Shown piece after piece: positions 4,332 through 14,397 of a stretch of DNA of 14,397 bases. The notes below the pieces were generated by a model. That model was given only the letters and a program-made list of their open reading frames with translations, was not told the origin of the DNA and did no database searches. The first letter of the stretch is position 1. Every line of letters begins with the position of its first letter. The translations under genes and the position numbers were made by a program. Source of the DNA: a virus (Duplodnaviria > Heunggongvirae > Uroviricota > Caudoviricetes); the IMG/VR virus record IMGVR_UViG_2563366907_000012. One strand, 5' to 3'.

Positions 4332-4932
4332 GCTCCTCTCCTTTGATGCGAATGCCAGCGACGCGTAATGCGTGTTCCAGGTCAATCAGGTAAAGCCAAC
4401 TGCCATTTTCTTTAGGTATCATGACATGTCGCTCATCTGCATTTATCGGGTGTCCATATCGAAGGTCGTAGCGAGTCGGTAATTGAACTTCCCGCGCTTC
4501 CAGTTCAGCAATACGCTTGCACCCATCAGAGATAACTCCCTCGTAATACTCGCGCTGCTCGTTGAGTTTTGATTTTGCTGCTTCAAGCTCAACGAGCAGC
4601 TTCCCAACCGTAAGCGCAATATCCTCGTTCTCCTGGTCGCGGCGTTTGATGTATTGCTGGTTTCTTTCCTGTTCATCCAGCAGTGCCAGCACGGTAGCCG
4701 GGTTAGCCTCTGCTATGAACTCAGCGTTTGCATAAGCCTGAGCATCTGTTTCAATCAGGCAGTTAACATGACGTTCCGCAATCACGCCACCGGGTTCTCC
4801 TTTCCATTTTTGACAAACAAAAACTCCTGTTAAATTGCCGTGTTGGTTAACAGATGTATGCCCTACGATGTAGCTTCCTTTAGTTGCTTTCTCTGCCTTT
4901 TCACGCAGTACCTGATAGTTAATCTCGCTCAT
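4309..4932 (-). CDS. Ead/Ea22-like coiled-coil prophage protein (tentative family call)
   Basis: Trimmed to MSEINYQ at 4932, overlapping the stop of the upstream small ORF. About 207 aa with a central coiled-coil-like segment. Family assignment is from memory. Confidence 0.55.
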   Translation of the reverse strand: MSEINYQVLREKAEKATKGSYIVGHTSVNQHGNLTGVFVCQKWKGEPGGVIAERHVNCLIETDAQAYANAEFIAEANPATVLALLDEQERNQQYIKRRDQENEDIALTVGKLLVELEAAKSKLNEQREYYEGVISDGCKRIAELEAREVQLPTRYDLRYGHPINADERHVMIPKENGSWLYLIDLEHALRVAGIRIKGEEHGNKTRG

Positions 4933-5107
4933 TTTTCTCTTCATTCCGGTATACAAGAATTACAACGTCACCTCTGCTAATTACGCGAGCTGGATCCCCT
5001 GGTTCCATGCTGTCAATCCCGAAGGCTTCGAAAAATGCATCCATTGCCTTCTGGCGTTGCTCCTGCTTACGGCGTTTATTCCATTTTTGAACAACAGTGA
5101 CAGCCAT
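4919..5107 (-). CDS. Hypothetical small protein (62 aa)
   Basis: Soluble-looking product (KAMDAFFEAFGIDSMEPGD...). Stop overlaps the MSEINYQ start. Competes with an overlapping frame at 4981..5199 that starts GTG behind a GGAGGTG SD and encodes a hydrophobic N-terminus. Confidence 0.4.
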   Translation of the reverse strand: MAVTVVQKWNKRRKQEQRQKAMDAFFEAFGIDSMEPGDPARVISRGDVVILVYRNEEKNERD

Positions 5108-5188
5108 CGTCCGCTGCAGAACATGATGTAGAAATAACCAAGAAGTGCCAGGCCGGTGTTCAGGGCCATATCAATCGTTATCGCCGGG

Positions 5189-8277: not shown

Positions 8278-8703
8278 TTAGTGCATCACCACAGCATTCC
8301 CTGCCGGGCCGCCGCGATTCATCTGGTCATACAAAACAACCGCTGACGCAACAAAATCATCGACATCCTTCACCAGCCGATCCCTCCGTTCGACGATCTC
8401 ACGGTAATATTCAGAACTGTGGCTGCGCATACGGGCCACCAGCAGAGGCGGCATTGCCTTTTCGATCGCCGGTAACAGAGCCTGCATTTTTTCAACAGCA
8501 TCAGGGGTGTCTTTATCCAGCCAACGGAAAATTTTCTGGGTATTACGGGCCAGGGCTTCCGGATGGCTGTCGTCATACAGTTCCGGGAACGTCATTCCCA
8601 GCTCGAAATACGCTTTGGTAATTTTCGCAGCCGGTACTTTTTCGCCGTCCGGATGCGCCCAGACATTCATCGCCATGCGGATGTGTTCATGCTTGATTTT
8701 CAT
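8278..8703 (-). CDS. YdaT-family protein (cII-position regulator/toxin-like)
   Basis: Begins MKIKHEHI as recalled for Rac YdaT. 141 aa; start overlaps the cro-like stop (ATGA), matching ydaS-ydaT order. Confidence 0.65.
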   Translation of the reverse strand: MKIKHEHIRMAMNVWAHPDGEKVPAAKITKAYFELGMTFPELYDDSHPEALARNTQKIFRWLDKDTPDAVEKMQALLPAIEKAMPPLLVARMRSHSSEYYREIVERRDRLVKDVDDFVASAVVLYDQMNRGGPAGNAVVMH

Positions 8704-8915
8704 GAATCATTCTTTCCTTCGTTCGAGGTGCTATCCTGCTTCTTGTAAAGTTCTGGGTTGTATTTCAATTCACCGTTAGTAATTTCATCCAGTTCCATTG
8801 CGCGAAGTTTGGGAATAACTGCTTTCCACCGCACAACAGCCACATGTGAAATTCCAAGAGCCTCAGCTACTAGTCGCTTTTTTTTGAAATAGCGCAGAAC
8901 ATCATCTTTGAACAT
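8700..8915 (-). CDS. Cro-like DNA-binding protein (DicC/YdaS-type)
   Basis: 71 aa, divergent from the repressor, AGGAGAG SD 5 nt upstream. Central segment LVAEALGISHVAVVRWKAVIP fits a YdaS/Cro-type HTH. Confidence 0.7.
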   Translation of the reverse strand: MFKDDVLRYFKKKRLVAEALGISHVAVVRWKAVIPKLRAMELDEITNGELKYNPELYKKQDSTSNEGKNDS

Positions 8916-8944
8916 AAAACTCTCCTGTTATTTCGAGCAGAAGG

Positions 8945-9006
8945 GTAACAATAGTTACATAACAATGTCAACCATAGCAACATCACTTGGTAGTAACATT
9001 GGTTAC
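8945..9006. promoter_or_regulatory. Divergent immunity-region operators: two GTAAC-N4-GTTAC palindromes
   Basis: GTAACAATAGTTAC at 8945..8958 and GTAACATTGGTTAC at 8993..9006. The second abuts the repressor ATG at 9007, implying a leaderless or near-leaderless repressor transcript. Confidence 0.55.
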
Positions 9007-9681
9007 ATGAAAAACACTATCAGCGAACGTATTCGGAATCGTCGAAAAGACGTTGGATTAACCCAACAGCAGGTTGCGAAAGCAATCGGCATATCTCGTG
9101 TATCCGTAACAAAATGGGAAAATGGCTCTTCAAAACCTGACGGTGAGAATTTGTATCTACTGTCAAAATTGCTTTCCAAATCTCCTGAATGGATTCTTTA
9201 TGGAAAGGACTGTCACGATAAAACCGATGATCTGCGTCTGAATCAGTACCCTTACATTAGTGACAACATCGCCCGGTTGCCCGTTTTAACGTGGGAACAG
9301 GCTGGTTATTGGGATATGAGTTGTCCAGTAACCAAGATTCCTGGTATTAATAACTGGGTTGATGTCATGACAAAAACCGCTGAAAACTCTTTTTTATTGC
9401 ATGTTGAGGGAGATGCGATGACAAACTCTAACGGCCTCCCAACCATCCCCGACGGATCTACCGTGCTGATCACACCATGCTCAAGTAACATTAGAGAACT
9501 GGTGGGAAAAATAATCTTAATCCAATTGGAAGGAACGCCAAACGTAACACTAAAAAAAGTTGCGATTGACGGACCAAACATCTATTTGTTGTCACTGAAT
9601 CCGCTTTACAAACCCATCGAACTGAATGGTGGTTACACCATTAAAGGTAAAGTTTCACAAATACATCAATACTTAGACTGA
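9007..9681 (+). CDS. CI/C2-type prophage repressor (N-terminal XRE HTH, C-terminal S24 LexA-like domain with Ala at the catalytic Ser position)
   Basis: MKNTISERIRNRRKDVGLTQQQVAKAIGISRVSVTKWENG aligns with the recalled P22 C2 N-terminus. C-terminal domain has VEGDAM where LexA/CI have GxSM, with the VTLKKV Lys retained. Upstream TTG (8908) and ATG (8965) starts rejected. Confidence 0.85.
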   Translation: MKNTISERIRNRRKDVGLTQQQVAKAIGISRVSVTKWENGSSKPDGENLYLLSKLLSKSPEWILYGKDCHDKTDDLRLNQYPYISDNIARLPVLTWEQAGYWDMSCPVTKIPGINNWVDVMTKTAENSFLLHVEGDAMTNSNGLPTIPDGSTVLITPCSSNIRELVGKIILIQLEGTPNVTLKKVAIDGPNIYLLSLNPLYKPIELNGGYTIKGKVSQIHQYLD

Positions 9682-9686
9682 GTCAG

Positions 9687-9711
9687 AACCCGCATTCATT
9701 GCGGGTTTTTT
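9687..9711 (+). terminator. Rho-independent terminator after the repressor gene
   Basis: ACCCGCA-TTCAT-TGCGGGT stem-loop followed by TTTTTT, 6 nt after the stop codon. Confidence 0.7.
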
Positions 9712-9743
9712 ATGCCCTCAAATGTACCTTTTGCAACATTGTA

Positions 9744-9770
9744 TTGACTCGAAAGGTAACTCTTGTTACC
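9744..9770 (+). promoter_or_regulatory. Putative PL-like promoter/operator for the dicB-type operon
   Basis: TTGACT at 9744..9749 followed by a third operator-type palindrome GGTAAC-TCTT-GTTACC (9755..9770). The -10 element is not clear. Confidence 0.45.
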
Positions 9771-9953
9771 TTAACAACATACCAACCCACACCGCCCCAC
9801 AGAACGCAGGGAAATACTTCGAGTTACCCGGCAGTGGTCAGGGGTTAAGTAGCCAGCCCGAGGCGTAAGAACATGACGGCAGGGTTCAACTTTAATAACT
9901 ATGCAGCAGGTTTTTGTTCCGCTACCCCGGCGTTAAGGGGAAATGAGGTCAGC

Positions 9954-10109
9954 ATGGATACTATCGATCTTGGCAACAGCGAATCTCTGGTATGTGGCGT
10001 GTTCCCCAACCAGGACGGTACGTTCACCGCGATGACGTATACCAAAAGCAAAACGTTTAAAACCGAAAATGGTGCCCGTCGCTGGCTGGAAAGAAACTCA
10101 GGTGAGTGA
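9954..10109 (+). CDS. ydfA: YdfA-like small protein (51 aa)
   Basis: ATG with GAGG 5 nt upstream; MDTIDLGNSESLVCGVFPNQDGTFTAMTYTKSKTFKTENGARRWLERNSGE. Length and position match ydfA of the Qin dicB operon. Upstream extension of the 78-aa ORF rejected. Confidence 0.7.
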   Translation: MDTIDLGNSESLVCGVFPNQDGTFTAMTYTKSKTFKTENGARRWLERNSGE

Positions 10110-10110
10110 T

Positions 10111-10239
10111 ATGGATTTTGACACAATCATGGAAAAGGCTTACGAAGAATACTTCGAAGGCCTTGCCGAAGGCGAAGAAGCTCACAGCTTCAACGAATTT
10201 AAACAGGCGCTTTCCAGTTCGGCAAAATCTAACGGCTGA
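10111..10239 (+). CDS. ydfB: YdfB-like small acidic protein (42 aa)
   Basis: ATG 1 nt after the ydfA stop, AGGTGAG SD. MDFDTIMEKAYEEYFEGLAEGEEAHSFNEFKQALSSSAKSNG. Below the ORF-track cutoff. Confidence 0.7.
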   Translation: MDFDTIMEKAYEEYFEGLAEGEEAHSFNEFKQALSSSAKSNG

Positions 10240-10268
10240 TAAGCGAAACAGCACCGCGAGGAATCAGT

Positions 10269-10487
10269 ATGCAGAAACGAGAACCCGTCATCATCGCGCC
10301 AGACTATACCGATGATGAACTTTATGAGTGGATGCGCCAGAAAATTAATGCAGCGCAGGATCTGAAATGGGCTAATGAAGTCAGGGCTAAGCAGGCTGAA
10401 AATCTGTCCGCTCTGGAGCAGGATATCACCAATCTGGAAAAAGCAGCGGCATTAAGCATTGCCAGAATGATTACATACCCGCGTTAG
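10269..10487 (+). CDS. ydfC: YdfC-like protein (72 aa)
   Basis: ATG with GAGGA SD; length and position match ydfC upstream of dicF. Confidence 0.7.
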   Translation: MQKREPVIIAPDYTDDELYEWMRQKINAAQDLKWANEVRAKQAENLSALEQDITNLEKAAALSIARMITYPR

Positions 10488-10827
10488 TAGCTAACCAACG
10501 AAGCTAAGGTTAGTAATTAAGGAGTTCTCCACGGGTGAGGTGGAGTGCGTGCGCCGGACACGGGTGCGCATCCGGCACTGACAGTTTACTGAAAGGATAT
10601 TTCCCTGAAAAGTCAGACCATAACGCGAAAGCGCACGGCGAGGTAGCTGGTTCATAGATAGCCTGTCGTTAAATTTTCGTCGACCGTGCGCTTCCGGTTG
10701 TGGCAACCCGCGAAATGGCGCGGCGGTAAGTATGGCGGGGTTATTCCTTCCCCGTTGAGGACACCGGGTTGTCAGGTTGACCATACGCTTAAGTGACAAC
10801 CCCGCTGCAACGCCCTCTGTTATCAAT

Positions 10828-10880
10828 TTTCTGGTGACGTTTGGCGGTATCAGTTTTACTCCGTGACTGCTCTGCCGCCC
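10828..10880 (+). ncRNA. dicF: DicF small regulatory RNA (ftsZ-targeting antisense sRNA)
   Basis: The 53 nt TTTCTGGTGACGTTTGGCGGTATCAGTTTTACTCCGTGACTGCTCTGCCGCCC match the DicF sequence as I recall it, followed by TTTTT, between ydfC and dicB. Confidence 0.85.
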
Positions 10881-11054
10881 TTTTTAAAGTGAATTTTGTG
10901 ATGCGGTGAATGCGGCTAAGCGCACGCGGAACAGTTAAAACCAAAAACAGTGTTATGGGTGGATTCTCTGTATCCGGCGTTAATTGTTAACTGGTTAACG
11001 TCACCTGGAGGCACCAGGCACTGCATCACAAAATTCATTGTTGAGGACGCGATA

Positions 11055-11243
11055 ATGAAAACGTTATTACCAAACGTTAATACGTCTGAAGGTTGTTTTG
11101 AAATTGGTGTCACTATCAGTAACCCTGTATTTACTGAAGATGCCATTAACAAGAGAAAACAAGAACGGGAGCTATTAAATAAAATATGCATTGTTTCAAT
11201 GCTGGCTCGTTTACGTCTGATGCCAAAAGGATGTGCACAATGA
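11055..11243 (+). CDS. dicB: DicB cell-division inhibitor (62 aa)
   Basis: MKTLLPNVNTSEGCFEIGVTISNPVFTEDAINKRKQERELLNKICIVSMLARLRLMPKGCAQ matches recalled DicB; GAGGA SD 7 nt upstream. Confidence 0.85.
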   Translation: MKTLLPNVNTSEGCFEIGVTISNPVFTEDAINKRKQERELLNKICIVSMLARLRLMPKGCAQ

Positions 11244-11431
11244 ATTCAGCATTTGTGCTTGTTCTGACAGTTTTTCTTGTTTCCGGAGAGCCAGTTGATA
11301 TTGCAGTCAGTGTTCACAGGACAATGCAGGAGTGTATGACTGCAGCAACCGAACAGAAAATTCCCGGTAACTGTTACCCGGTCGATAAAGTTATTCACCA
11401 GGATAATATCGAAATCCCGGCAGGTCTTTAA
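11240..11431 (+). CDS. ydfD: YdfD-like small membrane/lysis protein (63 aa)
   Basis: ATG overlaps the dicB stop (ATGA). MNSAFVLVLTVFLVSGEPVDIAVSVHRTMQECMTAATEQKIPGNCYPVDKVIHQDNIEIPAGL with a hydrophobic N-terminus. Confidence 0.8.
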   Translation: MNSAFVLVLTVFLVSGEPVDIAVSVHRTMQECMTAATEQKIPGNCYPVDKVIHQDNIEIPAGL

Positions 11432-11523
11432 AACAGTTCCGTAATAAATATCCGGTTTCATTCTTATATGCCAGCAATGGCAGGGATTTGTTCATCCTTA
11501 AATCTGTCATGAGGTTAAAACAA

Positions 11524-14397
11524 ATGAGTAAAGTCTTTATTTGCGCCGCTATTCCTGACGAACTGGCAACAAGGGAAGAAGGCGCTGTGGCTGTAGCCAC
11601 AGCCATTGAAGCTGGCGACGAACGCCGTGCTCGAGCAAAATTTCACTGGCAATTCCTGGAACATTATCCGGCTGCTCAGGACTGCGCTTATAAATTTATT
11701 GTCTGCGAGGATAAACCTGGCATACCCCGCCCTGCCCTCGATTCATGGGATGCTGAATATATGCAGGAAAACCGCTGGGATGAGGAGTCTGCTTCTTTTG
11801 TCCCGGTTGAGACTGAATCCGATCCGATGAACGTCACTTTTGACAAGCTGGCCCCTGAAGTACAGAACGCTGTCATGGTTAAGTTCGACACATGTGAAAA
11901 CATCACCGTTGATATGGTTATTAGCGCACAGGAATTGTTGCAGGAAGACATGGCAACATTCGACGGACATATCGTTGAAGCGTTGATGAAAATGCCAGAA
12001 GTTAACGCCATGTATCCGGAGCTTAAGTTGCACGCCATTGGGTGGGTTAAGCATAAATGTATTCCTGGTGCTAAATGGCCCGAAATTCAGGCAGAGATGC
12101 GCATCTGGAAAAAACGTCGCGAAGGTGAACGCAAGGAAACCGGAAAATACACGTCTGTTGTTGATCTCGCCCGCGCCAGAGCCAATCAACAGTACACTGA
12201 AAATTCAACAGGAAAAATCAGCCCGGTCATTGCTGCCATTCATCGCGAATACAAGCAGACATGGAAAACACTGGATGACGAACTGGCCTACGCTCTCTGG
12301 CCTGGTGATGTGGATGCCGGAAACATTGACGGCAGCATCCATCGCTGGGCAAAAAAAGAAGTTATCGACAACGACCGCGAAGACTGGAAGCGTATCTCGG
12401 CATCAATGCGCAAACAGCCTGATGCCCTTCGCTACGACCGCCAAACTATTTTTGGCCTTGTCCGTGAGCGTCCGATCGACATTCACAAAGATCCCGTAGC
12501 ACTGAACAAATATATCTGCGAATACCTGACGACAAAGGGCGTGTTTGAGAATGAAGAAACAGACCTGGGCACTGTTGATGTTCTCCAGTCATCAGAAACA
12601 CAAACTGATGCAGTGGAAACTGAGGTATCTGATATCCCAAAAAATGAAACCGCGCCGGAAGCTGAACCATCTGTAGAGCGTGAGGGGCCGTTCTATTTCC
12701 TCTTCGCAGATAAGGACGGAGAAAAATACGGTCGCGCAAACAAACTCTCTGGTCTGGATAAGGCACTGGCTGCTGGCGCCACTGAAATCACAAAAGAAGA
12801 ATATTTTGCCCGAAAAAATGGCACATACACGGGCTTACCGCAAAATGTAGATACCGCTGAAGATTCAGAACAACCAGAGCCGATAAAAGTTACCGCTGAC
12901 GAAGTAAACAAAATTATGCAGGCAGCCAATATCAGCCAGCCTGACGCCGATAAGTTGCTTGCTGCATCACGTGGTGAATTTGTTGAAGGGATTAGTGACC
13001 CGAATGATCCGAAATGGGTTAAGGGGCTCCAGACCCGCGATTCTGTGAACCAGAACCAGCATGAATCGGAACGGAACTACCAAAAAGCGGAACAAAACAG
13101 TCCAAATGCGTTACAAAACGAGCCAGAAACGAAACAGCCTGAACCAGTAGCGCAACAGGAAGTGGAAAAAGTCTGCACCGCCTGCGGTCAGACCGGCGGC
13201 GGCAACTGCCCTGATTGTGGCGCGGTGATGGGCGACGCAACATACCAAGAAACATTCGATGAAGAGTATCAGGTTGAAGTTCAGGAAGATGATCCGGAGG
13301 AAATGGAAGGCGCTGAACATCCACACAAGGAGAACACTGGCGGCAATCAGCATCACGATAGCGATAATGAAACTGGCGAGACGGCAGATCACCCAATTAA
13401 GGTGAACGGTCATCACGAAATCACATCCACCAGCAGGACGTGTGACCATCTAATGATCGACCTTGAAACCATGGGAAAAAATCCTGATGCCCCGATCATC
13501 TCAATAGGTGCAATATTTTTCGATCCGCAAACCGGAGATATGGGACCGGAATTTAGTAAGACTATCGATCTGGAAACTGCTGGCGGAGTCATTGATCGGG
13601 ACACCATTAAATGGTGGCTTAAGCAATCACGCGAAGCGCAATCTGCCATTATGACCGATGAAATCCCGTTAGATGATGCACTGTTACAATTGCGAGAATT
13701 TATCGACGAAAACTCCGGTGAATTTTTTGTTCAGGTTTGGGGAAATGGAGCCAACTTCGACAACACGATTTTGCGCCGTTCATACGAACGGCAGGGGATC
13801 CCCTGCCCGTGGCGTTACTACAACGATCGCGATGTACGCACAATCGTTGAGCTGGGGAAAGCCATAGACTTCGATGCCAGAACGGCTATTCCATTCGAAG
13901 GTGAGCGCCATAATGCGCTTGATGACGCCCGTTACTGGGAACTGGAAAAAGATGAAGTGATAAGCCCACTGCCGGTTTATGCCTCAACCTTTGAAGGCTG
14001 GGACTCCCCTGAACGTAGTGCCTTCCCACTGCAACTGTTTGGTTTCCATTACAAATCCCGTACGCACTCGACCTACGGCAACATTGATGTCCTGAAGGCA
14101 GCCTGCCGTCAGGAAGTGTGGATCAACCCTATTGACGCACAGAAACGTGGGATTGCCAACGGCGATATGGTGCGGGTGTTTAACCATCGTGGCGAAGTTC
14201 GGCTACCAGCCAAAGTGACACCACGCATTCTCCCTGGGGTTAGCGCTATGGGCCAGGGAGCCTGGCACGAGGCCAATATGTCTGGCGATAAAATCGACCA
14301 CGGCGGCTGTGTGAATACGCTAACCACTCTGCGCCCTTCACCACTGGCGAAGGGAAACCCGCAGCACACTAATCTGGTCGAGATCGAAAAAATATAA
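11524..14397 (+). CDS. Large chimeric ORF: YdfE/RecE-like prophage protein (zinc ribbon plus DEDDh 3'-5' exonuclease domain) fused in frame to the C-terminus of a DmsA/YnfE/YnfF-family molybdoenzyme
   Basis: ATG at 11524 with GAGGT SD (track start 11488 is TTG). Features in order: CTACGQTGGGNCPDCG zinc ribbon (~13174..13221), acidic/His-rich linker, Exo I DLETMG, Exo II GNGANFD, Exo III HNALDDA (~13441..13930). From ~14010 on, FPLQLFGFHYKSRTHSTYGN ... GDMVRVFNHRGEV ... PSPLAKGNPQHTNLVEIEKI reads as a molybdopterin dinucleotide-binding domain. Stop is at the last base of the window. Confidence 0.7.
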   Translation: MSKVFICAAIPDELATREEGAVAVATAIEAGDERRARAKFHWQFLEHYPAAQDCAYKFIVCEDKPGIPRPALDSWDAEYMQENRWDEESASFVPVETESDPMNVTFDKLAPEVQNAVMVKFDTCENITVDMVISAQELLQEDMATFDGHIVEALMKMPEVNAMYPELKLHAIGWVKHKCIPGAKWPEIQAEMRIWKKRREGERKETGKYTSVVDLARARANQQYTENSTGKISPVIAAIHREYKQTWKTLDDELAYALWPGDVDAGNIDGSIHRWAKKEVIDNDREDWKRISASMRKQPDALRYDRQTIFGLVRERPIDIHKDPVALNKYICEYLTTKGVFENEETDLGTVDVLQSSETQTDAVETEVSDIPKNETAPEAEPSVEREGPFYFLFADKDGEKYGRANKLSGLDKALAAGATEITKEEYFARKNGTYTGLPQNVDTAEDSEQPEPIKVTADEVNKIMQAANISQPDADKLLAASRGEFVEGISDPNDPKWVKGLQTRDSVNQNQHESERNYQKAEQNSPNALQNEPETKQPEPVAQQEVEKVCTACGQTGGGNCPDCGAVMGDATYQETFDEEYQVEVQEDDPEEMEGAEHPHKENTGGNQHHDSDNETGETADHPIKVNGHHEITSTSRTCDHLMIDLETMGKNPDAPIISIGAIFFDPQTGDMGPEFSKTIDLETAGGVIDRDTIKWWLKQSREAQSAIMTDEIPLDDALLQLREFIDENSGEFFVQVWGNGANFDNTILRRSYERQGIPCPWRYYNDRDVRTIVELGKAIDFDARTAIPFEGERHNALDDARYWELEKDEVISPLPVYASTFEGWDSPERSAFPLQLFGFHYKSRTHSTYGNIDVLKAACRQEVWINPIDAQKRGIANGDMVRVFNHRGEVRLPAKVTPRILPGVSAMGQGAWHEANMSGDKIDHGGCVNTLTTLRPSPLAKGNPQHTNLVEIEKI

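Follow-up and report, generated by a model that had tools for sequence, protein, structure and literature searches.

In the stretch of viral DNA analysed here (14,397 nucleotides, hereafter the window; Caudoviricetes, IMG/VR record IMGVR_UViG_2563366907_000012), a CI/DicA-type immunity repressor gene encodes an alanine, Ala137, at the position of the nucleophilic serine of its S24-fold C-terminal domain. The repressor is most likely non-cleavable by the self-cleavage that activated RecA (RecA*) stimulates, as Ala occupies the nucleophile position and the equivalent changes in LexA (S119A) and lambda CI (S149A) provide the precedent. Ser-to-Ala substitutions in these two proteins abolish S24 cleavage with the fold kept, and such stable forms are the ones used for crystals and imaged on RecA. 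The best explanation, to which we assign a probability of roughly 0.7, is that the protein is a natural ind- CI of a Qin-like lambdoid prophage that uncouples both the prophage and its dicBF operon from RecA-mediated induction.

Active site, spread and evolution of the alanine allele

The protein belongs to PHROG 4 (transcriptional repressor) and joins an N-terminal helix-turn-helix (HTH) domain to a C-terminal domain whose match to Pfam Peptidase_S24 (PF00717) scores 60.3 bits against a cut-off of 23.3 and covers profile positions 1-115 of 116. Among solved structures, its top HMMER match is full-length lambda CI (3bdn, E 2e-14); the N-terminal domain matches P22 C2 (E 1.3e-12), and the HTH is 57% identical to that of K-12 DicA over 65 residues (E 7e-24). 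An AlphaFold2 model computed from the family alignment (mean predicted local distance difference test score, pLDDT, of 77.5) retrieves with Foldseek lambda CI 3bdn (E 3.6e-11), the CI-RecA filament complex 8gmu, 2hnf and many LexA structures, and the S-to-A mutant structures 1jhh, 6a2s and 8s7g are among the matches. An earlier note on this DNA, made from the sequence alone, had proposed the S24 fold and suggested checking it against PF00717 and the lambda CI, P22 C2 and LexA structures; the Pfam profile, the HMMER comparison with lambda CI, the family alignment and the predicted fold all agree on it, with matches to lambda CI, to LexA and, in the N-terminal domain, to P22 C2.

At the active site, HMMER pairs VEGDAMT of the repressor with VEGNSMT of lambda CI, TLKKV with TFKKL, and EQAGYW with VQAGMF, and counting from lambda Ser149 places lambda K192 on the first K. 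The general-base Lys and the Ala-Gly bond of an active S24 enzyme are present, and the Ser nucleophile is missing (GDAM). The same column holds Ser in 88 of the 105 nearest full-length representatives of 50%-identity clusters, in all 20 species-representative relatives at 43-52% identity, and in an 87%-identical E. coli sister allele, which reads VEGDSMT. Both residue assignments of the earlier note are borne out: GCG (Ala) at codon 9415-9417, where Ser is expected, by four alignments and the sister alleles, and retention of the general-base Lys by the alignment of Lys183 (9553-9555) with lambda K192. A serine of the nearby TNSNG motif was considered as a substitute nucleophile and rejected, as it is Pro in most homologues (TNPNG).

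The repressor gene is found in 702 of 5426 complete Escherichia coli genomes. A 33-mer centred on codon 9415-9417, for which any mismatch in the codon abolishes every megablast seed, is present exactly with GCG in 682 of the 5426 and with TCG in none. All 80 related IMG/VR loci carry GCG at Ala137, AAA at Lys183 and GCT GGT at the Ala-Gly pair, and the exact protein occurs on at least 1000 contigs from E. coli and E. albertii. The 33-mer counts and the 80 loci reject both a sequencing error and a private mutation. By clade, complete E. coli genomes (n = 5426) divide into about 694 with the Ala clade versus 8 with the Ser sister clade, the latter mostly Shiga toxin-producing E. coli (STEC) or bovine strains, and the Ala allele is present in about one in eight (~13%), clinical lineages included. 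One record, NZ_AP040233.1 (pNR3838_1, a 94.5 kb "plasmid"; L050/L051), holds ompW, tonB, opp, adhE, hns, nar and chaC along with the prophage and its repressor; rather than a plasmid, it probably represents an artefact of assembly or a circle excised from the chromosome, and because it contains these chromosomal genes, from ompW to chaC, it was discarded as a sign of excised phage.

The comparison of Ser and Ala across homologous repressors, which the earlier note had proposed, sorts the alleles into five clusters. Three of them carry Ala: cluster 1, to which the window belongs (GCG; E. coli, E. albertii), cluster 2 (GCG; E. coli, 88% identical to the window protein) and cluster 4 (GCA; Salmonella enterica with subsp. 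diarizonae, 68% identical). The other two carry Ser: cluster 3 (TCA; E. coli, 86-87% identical) and cluster 5 (TCG; Enterobacter bugandensis, 65% identical). The nucleophile state is fixed within each allele group (close family), and Ala and Ser alleles are interleaved in trees. Relationships among the three E. coli lineages are star-like, with 40, 38 and 35 informative sites for the three pairings, and no tract of recombination surrounds the codon. Codon parsimony gives equal scores to an old Ala with reversion to Ser in cluster 3 and to at least two independent Ser-to-Ala changes. The earlier note had suggested a single-base change from TCG to GCG. This is no recent, private event: Ala marks a family of alleles that is fixed across E. 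coli, E. albertii and Salmonella, and among Ser alleles of E. coli the nearest read TCA, two bases away.

The repressor gene is functional and under strong purifying selection, and is not decaying. The ratio of non-synonymous to synonymous substitution rates (dN/dS, or omega) of the C-terminal domain is 0.05-0.08 over all pairs and 0.06 between two Ala alleles whose synonymous divergence (dS) is 0.76, arguing that the Ala state is no fresh lesion; the N-terminal domain lies at 0.03-0.13, and constraint is relaxed in the linker only. Of the polymorphisms that the Ala clade shows in this C-terminal domain, 14 are synonymous and 3 non-synonymous; premature stops are absent from all 80 copies. In the Ala alleles examined, Salmonella included, the Ala-Gly pair, Lys183 and the LPVLTWEQAG segment are invariant, with the exception of P0068, which has Val-Gly. 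Among the 105 representatives (P0084-P0229 search), the nucleophile column has no Ser in 17 (~16%; 6 Ala, 7 Thr and 4 other), some of these calls possibly being alignment slips, and the Ala-Gly pair is lost in most of these more distant proteins. Catalytically dead CI-like repressors appear to be common, yet they are annotated as LexA-family peptidases.

Two further members of the wider family have lost parts of the active site. On an E. coli chromosome, P0009 is a 132-residue truncated derivative of the Ser clade that ends "...ENSFYCA" right before the active-site motif, leaving a DicA-sized remnant of HTH, linker and cleavage site, a second and independent loss of cleavage in the same family. 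In Arsenophonus nasoniae, P0020 has a degenerate active-site motif (PDDKTDN) and no Ala-Gly (HDMKKW), resembling a decayed copy in an insect symbiont.

Immunity region and dicBF operon

The coordinates of the immunity region and the adjoining left operon are collected in the table. The palindrome GTAAC-N4-GTTAC occurs in three exact copies (at 8945, 8993 and 9756); with up to one mismatch there are four copies against 0.28 expected, and none of 200 shuffled sequences reaches four. TTGACT at 9744-9749 adjoins the operator ahead of ydfA, in a position like that of PL or dicBp, and is a putative promoter. A consensus scan for promoters and terminators over 8650-10000 gave nothing useful: it did not call the TTGACT promoter, and it missed the terminator behind the repressor gene, which folding confirmed. 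The operators lie at the same positions in E. coli Ser and Ala alleles and in Enterobacter, with only site 8945 an exact match in Salmonella; given these common positions, Ser and Ala alleles are probably homoimmune.

Table. Features of the immunity region, the repressor active site and the left operon in the window
Feature	Coordinates	Strand	Basis
CII-like / YdaT-family gene	8278..8703	-	PHROG 163 CII-like activator (1.8e-46); Pfam YdaT_toxin
Divergent cro-like gene, P22_Cro family	8700..8915	-	Pfam 2.8e-16; PHROG 409
Operator GTAACAATAGTTAC, between cro and repressor gene	8945..8958	.	Exact palindrome GTAAC-N4-GTTAC
Putative middle operator TCAACCATAGCAAC, weaker, spaced ~24 bp from the flanking operators	8968..8981	.	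Candidate read from the sequence, kept in relatives
Operator GTAACATTGGTTAC, abutting ATG 9007	8993..9006	.	Exact palindrome
CI/DicA-type immunity repressor gene, 224 amino acids (aa)	9007..9681	+	ATG 9007, TGA 9679-9681
HTH_3 DNA-binding domain, residues 9-63	9031..9195	+	Pfam 3.5e-17
Peptidase_S24-fold C-terminal domain, residues 92-216, predicted catalytically dead	9280..9654	+	Pfam 1.8e-16
Ala99-Gly100 (GCT GGT), counterpart of lambda CI scissile A111-G112, kept	9301..9306	+	Alignment
Ala137 (GCG), column of the S24 nucleophilic Ser (lambda CI Ser149)	9415..9417	+	Alignments
Lys183 (AAA), counterpart of general base lambda CI Lys192, kept	9553..9555	+	Alignment
Terminator hairpin with U-run, directly 3' of repressor stop	9685..9709	+	Fold -15.1 kcal/mol, z -4.2
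Operator GTAACTCTTGTTAC, downstream of repressor gene and its terminator, ahead of ydfA	9756..9769	.	Exact palindrome
Presumed repressed left operon: ydfA, ydfB, ydfC, DicF small RNA (sRNA), dicB, ydfD	9954..11431	+	Identity to K-12 Qin
DicF sRNA	10829-10880	+	Rfam 76.7 bits
dicB	11055-11243	+	

The features of a lambda-CI-type repressor are all found: an N-terminal HTH, a divergent cro-like gene (full length in 77 of the 80 IMG/VR loci) and repeated operators on both sides of the repressor gene. O-like and DnaC-like replication genes are also divergent from it. From this arrangement, the repressor would be expected to repress the early lytic promoters and to confer superinfection immunity.

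In the PGAP (Prokaryotic Genome Annotation Pipeline)/RefSeq annotation, the gene starts 42 nt upstream, at 8965, and encodes a 238-aa "LexA family protein" (WP_000103685.1). The start at 9007, taken by the earlier note, is favoured over the annotated one: operator 8993-9006 abuts this ATG, the AlphaFold2 model gives the first 15 residues of the 238-aa form a pLDDT under 50, and several homologues start at the same Met. The annotated start falls within the operator region (8965-9006), and an apparently conserved "NIGYM" in the N-terminal extension of homologues overlaps operator GTAACATTGGTTAC; because its conservation coincides with the operator, the 14-residue extension is probably untranslated.

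To the right of the repressor gene, window positions 9916-12290 are 99.07% identical to ydfA-ydfB-ydfC-dicF-dicB-ydfD-ydfE of the K-12 Qin prophage, and the immunity module to the left of ydfA..ydfE is entirely unlike Qin dicA/dicC. The repressor is the full-length, S24-bearing counterpart of dicA, standing at the dicA position and placed to repress the dicBF operon. In the mechanism that we propose, it would bind the GTAAC-N4-GTTAC operators that lie at the promoter on the cro side and upstream of ydfABC-dicF-dicB, and its S24-fold C-terminal domain would be kept for folding and oligomerisation, with Ala replacing the nucleophilic Ser. Ala137 would then preclude RecA*-stimulated self-cleavage and make this a natural ind- allele, so that the prophage and the toxic dicB, dicF and ydfD stay silenced and uncoupled from direct SOS induction. 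Derepression may occur by RecA-independent CI/Cro flipping, as for DicA/DicC, or through an antirepressor supplied in trans. In defective carriers, dicB, dicF and ydfD triggered by SOS would harm the host without phage yield, and we infer both SOS non-inducibility and a host-level advantage of the Ala allele. Lambda cI ind- reduces induction about 1000-fold and abolishes the fitness cost of the lysogen in the mouse gut (PMC4752277), and dicBp under DicA is not mitomycin-inducible and is switched on independently of RecA (PMC10448788).

The identical repressor protein is found in mosaic lambdoid prophages at at least five attachment sites, with different integrases. Carrier L001, at potC, looks complete; in L004, at tRNA-Ser/mtfA, the integrase is frameshifted and an internal stop interrupts the DnaC-like gene; L005 occupies the Qin site at rspB and is without exo, xis and int; and L050 lies at ompW. 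The cluster-2 Ala allele P0002 is carried by L006 at a further site, yccA. Elsewhere in the window, the nin-like region holds a hokD toxin gene with the sok antisense RNA (Rfam RF01794, 106.7 bits; 2456-2611 and 2608-2779, both on the minus strand), and an ead/Ea22-like gene with a DUF4752 gene (4498-5169, minus strand), which have partial or frameshifted annotations in the near-identical carriers L004 and L005. This suggests that the nin-like region is partly decaying even with the immunity module intact.

SOS input and competing explanations

From the loss of the nucleophile, the earlier note had reasoned that either an antirepressor provides another route to induction or the prophage is non-inducible. 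We found no sign of the former in cis. In the window, the LexA-box pattern CTGT-N8-ACAG with at most one mismatch has 7 matches against 4.2 expected, none convincing, and consensus-weighted scans of carriers L001, L002, L004, L005 and L006 and of 971 kb flanking the 80 IMG/VR loci returned sporadic weak sites only. PHROGs and Pfam assigned none of 20 open reading frames of the window to an antirepressor family, and tblastn with K-12 Rem found no homologue, a negative that covers the window, the five carriers and the 80 loci with about 10 kb to either side. The SOS-uncoupled option is favoured because neither a cis antirepressor nor a LexA box was found. The only reasonable LexA-like site in any carrier, AACTGGATATTTTTACAGTA at L001:11019-11038, lies outside the window, at the 5' end of a prophage DNA-methyltransferase gene.

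Three points weigh against a natural ind- repressor of an SOS-uncoupled prophage. First, the module lies at five or more attachment sites and has therefore been transferred among phages; such transfer implies a degree of lytic or recombinational activity. Second, the Ala-Gly pair, Lys183 and the segment LPVLTWEQAGYWDM are kept in Ala alleles, which could reflect a function of the site, for example as a substrate of trans-cleavage, or general constraint; the constraint on the domain as a whole (omega ~0.06) is enough to explain the retention of Ala-Gly and Lys183. Third, the antirepressor screen covered about 10 kb on each side of the gene, leaving out late regions and co-resident prophages. 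The retained site is also compatible with trans-cleavage by a Ser-bearing partner, with docking on RecA*, and with selection to stay one mutation away from inducibility.

The last of these leads to a tentative reading, at perhaps one chance in four, in which the nucleophile codon is an evolutionary toggle of inducibility within one homoimmune family. Either Ser-to-Ala would have been selected at least twice (GCG in E. coli, GCA in Salmonella), or an ancient Ala would have reverted in a rare STEC-associated clade, with the Lys, the Ala-Gly pair and the cleavage region kept so that a single base switches between SOS-inducible and SOS-blind states. As a corollary, the Ala protein may dock on RecA* filaments without being consumed.

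The leading rival explanation, of rather low probability, is that the repressor is non-cleavable but the prophage is nevertheless SOS-inducible in the style of Gifsy, 186 or N15, through a LexA- or stress-controlled antirepressor elsewhere in the prophage or in a co-resident one. Non-cleavable repressors receive SOS input through LexA-controlled antirepressors, an established paradigm that includes relatives of DicA and RacR, and antirepressors can act in trans (PMC3121763). Rem is the antirepressor of DicA in Qin (PMC10448788), the N-terminal domain of our repressor is 57% identical to DicA, and the spread of the module over many attachment sites fits phage activity. However, the scans above found neither convincing LexA boxes, be it in the window, in the five carriers or around the 80 loci, nor a Rem homologue or an antirepressor family among the window proteins, and the targets of Rem and of the Gifsy antirepressors are short repressors that differ in their C-terminal part. 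L004 (28720-29574, strain GN02050) has, unlike the window, a Rha-family phage regulatory gene between ydfC and dicB; its location within the left operon, which is itself repressed, excludes it as the trigger.

Improbable, by our estimate, is removal of the Ala protein by trans-cleavage at Ala-Gly, performed by a Ser-bearing S24 protein such as the CI of another prophage or a hetero-oligomer partner. Reportedly, Kim and Little in 1993 described intermolecular cleavage by the C-terminal domains of LexA and CI. The strict retention of Ala99-Gly100 and Lys183 in the Ala alleles of E. coli and Salmonella (P0068 excepted), the loss of Ala-Gly in most distant Ser-less families, and the existence of probably homoimmune Ser alleles with the same operators are in line with such a route. 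Against it, purifying selection acts on the whole C-terminal domain, known trans-cleavage is slow, and Ser-clade alleles are so rare (8 of 5426 genomes) that a cognate cleavage partner would usually be absent.

Slightly less credible still is a neutral inactivating mutation in a dead, cryptic prophage whose repressor gene is becoming a pseudogene. Some carriers are plainly defective, as described for L004 and L005, and INPHARED contains no phage with a repressor more than 60% identical, the best matches being at 42%; we do not count this absence as evidence, since the Ser sister clade is missing there too and the observation does not discriminate. Against decay stand the low dN/dS, the excess of synonymous over non-synonymous polymorphisms and the 80 stop-free copies, together with the intact cro, CII-like gene and operators, the seemingly complete carrier L001, and the fixation of Ala over allele groups at dS of 0.76 or more. 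Finally, an alignment slip or sequencing error that hides a true Ser nucleophile is already refuted by these data. Nothing was found in its favour, and the sole serines nearby are those of TNSNG; four independent alignments agree, sister alleles have Ser in exactly the same column, and GCG is identical across 682 independent complete genomes.

Relation to known repressors and significance

The natural ind- reading that we prefer can be set against several known systems. Like lambda CI and P22 C2, the repressor combines an HTH with an S24 fold; its gene is accompanied by a divergent cro and flanked by palindromic operators, and the Ala-Gly pair, the G-x-[S]-M motif and the Lys align. The protein is only ~25-28% identical to lambda CI, and its left operon, unlike that of lambda, is the Qin-type ydfABC-dicF-dicB. 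The residue change is that of the laboratory mutants lambda cI ind-, CI S149A and LexA S119A, yet here it occurs naturally and is fixed in a widespread family of alleles.

DicA of K-12 Qin occupies the same position upstream of the 99%-identical ydfA-ydfB-ydfC-dicF-dicB-ydfD, and a like outcome is expected, as the dicBp repressor is not cleaved in the SOS response (PMC10448788). DicA, however, has 135 aa and neither an S24 domain nor an Ala-Gly pair, whereas the predicted non-cleavability of the window repressor comes from a point substitution in a complete S24 domain. The partner genes differ as well: dicC, ydfX and ydfW in Qin, and here a P22_Cro-type cro and a YdaT/CII-like gene, with no rem found. 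The Gifsy-1/-2/-3 repressors GfoR, GtgR and GfhR and RacR are lambdoid immunity repressors that are likewise not expected to self-cleave (PMC3121763); they have ~136-150 aa and no C-terminal protease fold, and LexA-controlled antirepressors have been identified for them, whereas the window repressor has the fold and no LexA box or antirepressor was found near it. With its DicA-like HTH and its dicBF position, the 224-aa protein resembles this short DicA/RacR/Gifsy class (~135-150 aa, no S24), but it stands outside it because the whole protease fold is kept.

A further comparison is with the Ser sisters, in E. coli cluster 3 (for example O178:H19 2012C-4431) and in Enterobacter bugandensis cluster 5, which share the operators, the cro/YdaT-like neighbours and the type of left operon. 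They differ in reading GDSM (TCA or TCG), are predicted to be cleavable and, for the E. coli clade, are far rarer (8 versus ~694 complete genomes). No prior description of the Ala allele or its accession was found in the searchable literature. What is new here is a natural, widely fixed and selectively maintained nucleophile-dead CI; loss of the Ser is in itself not rare in sequence space.

DNA-damage induction is the default assumption wherever a CI/LexA-like ("S24 family") repressor is annotated, and the labels "LexA family protein" and "SOS-response repressor and protease" mislead for a gene present in ~13% of complete E. coli genomes. With about one-sixth of related repressor families lacking the Ser, predictors of prophage inducibility should check catalytic residues beyond the domain match. 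The natural allele pair, 87% identical and differing in Ser versus Ala over the same operators, offers a tool for studying how inducibility is tuned. Should the repressor prove non-cleavable, SOS-inducing antibiotics would have no direct effect on these prophages or on dicB, dicF and ydfD, their genes for cell division and lysis. Forecasts of gene transfer by phages and of fluoroquinolone-induced filamentation would be affected, and the allele would be a natural counterpart of lambda cI ind-, which removes the cost of lysogeny in the gut (PMC4752277).

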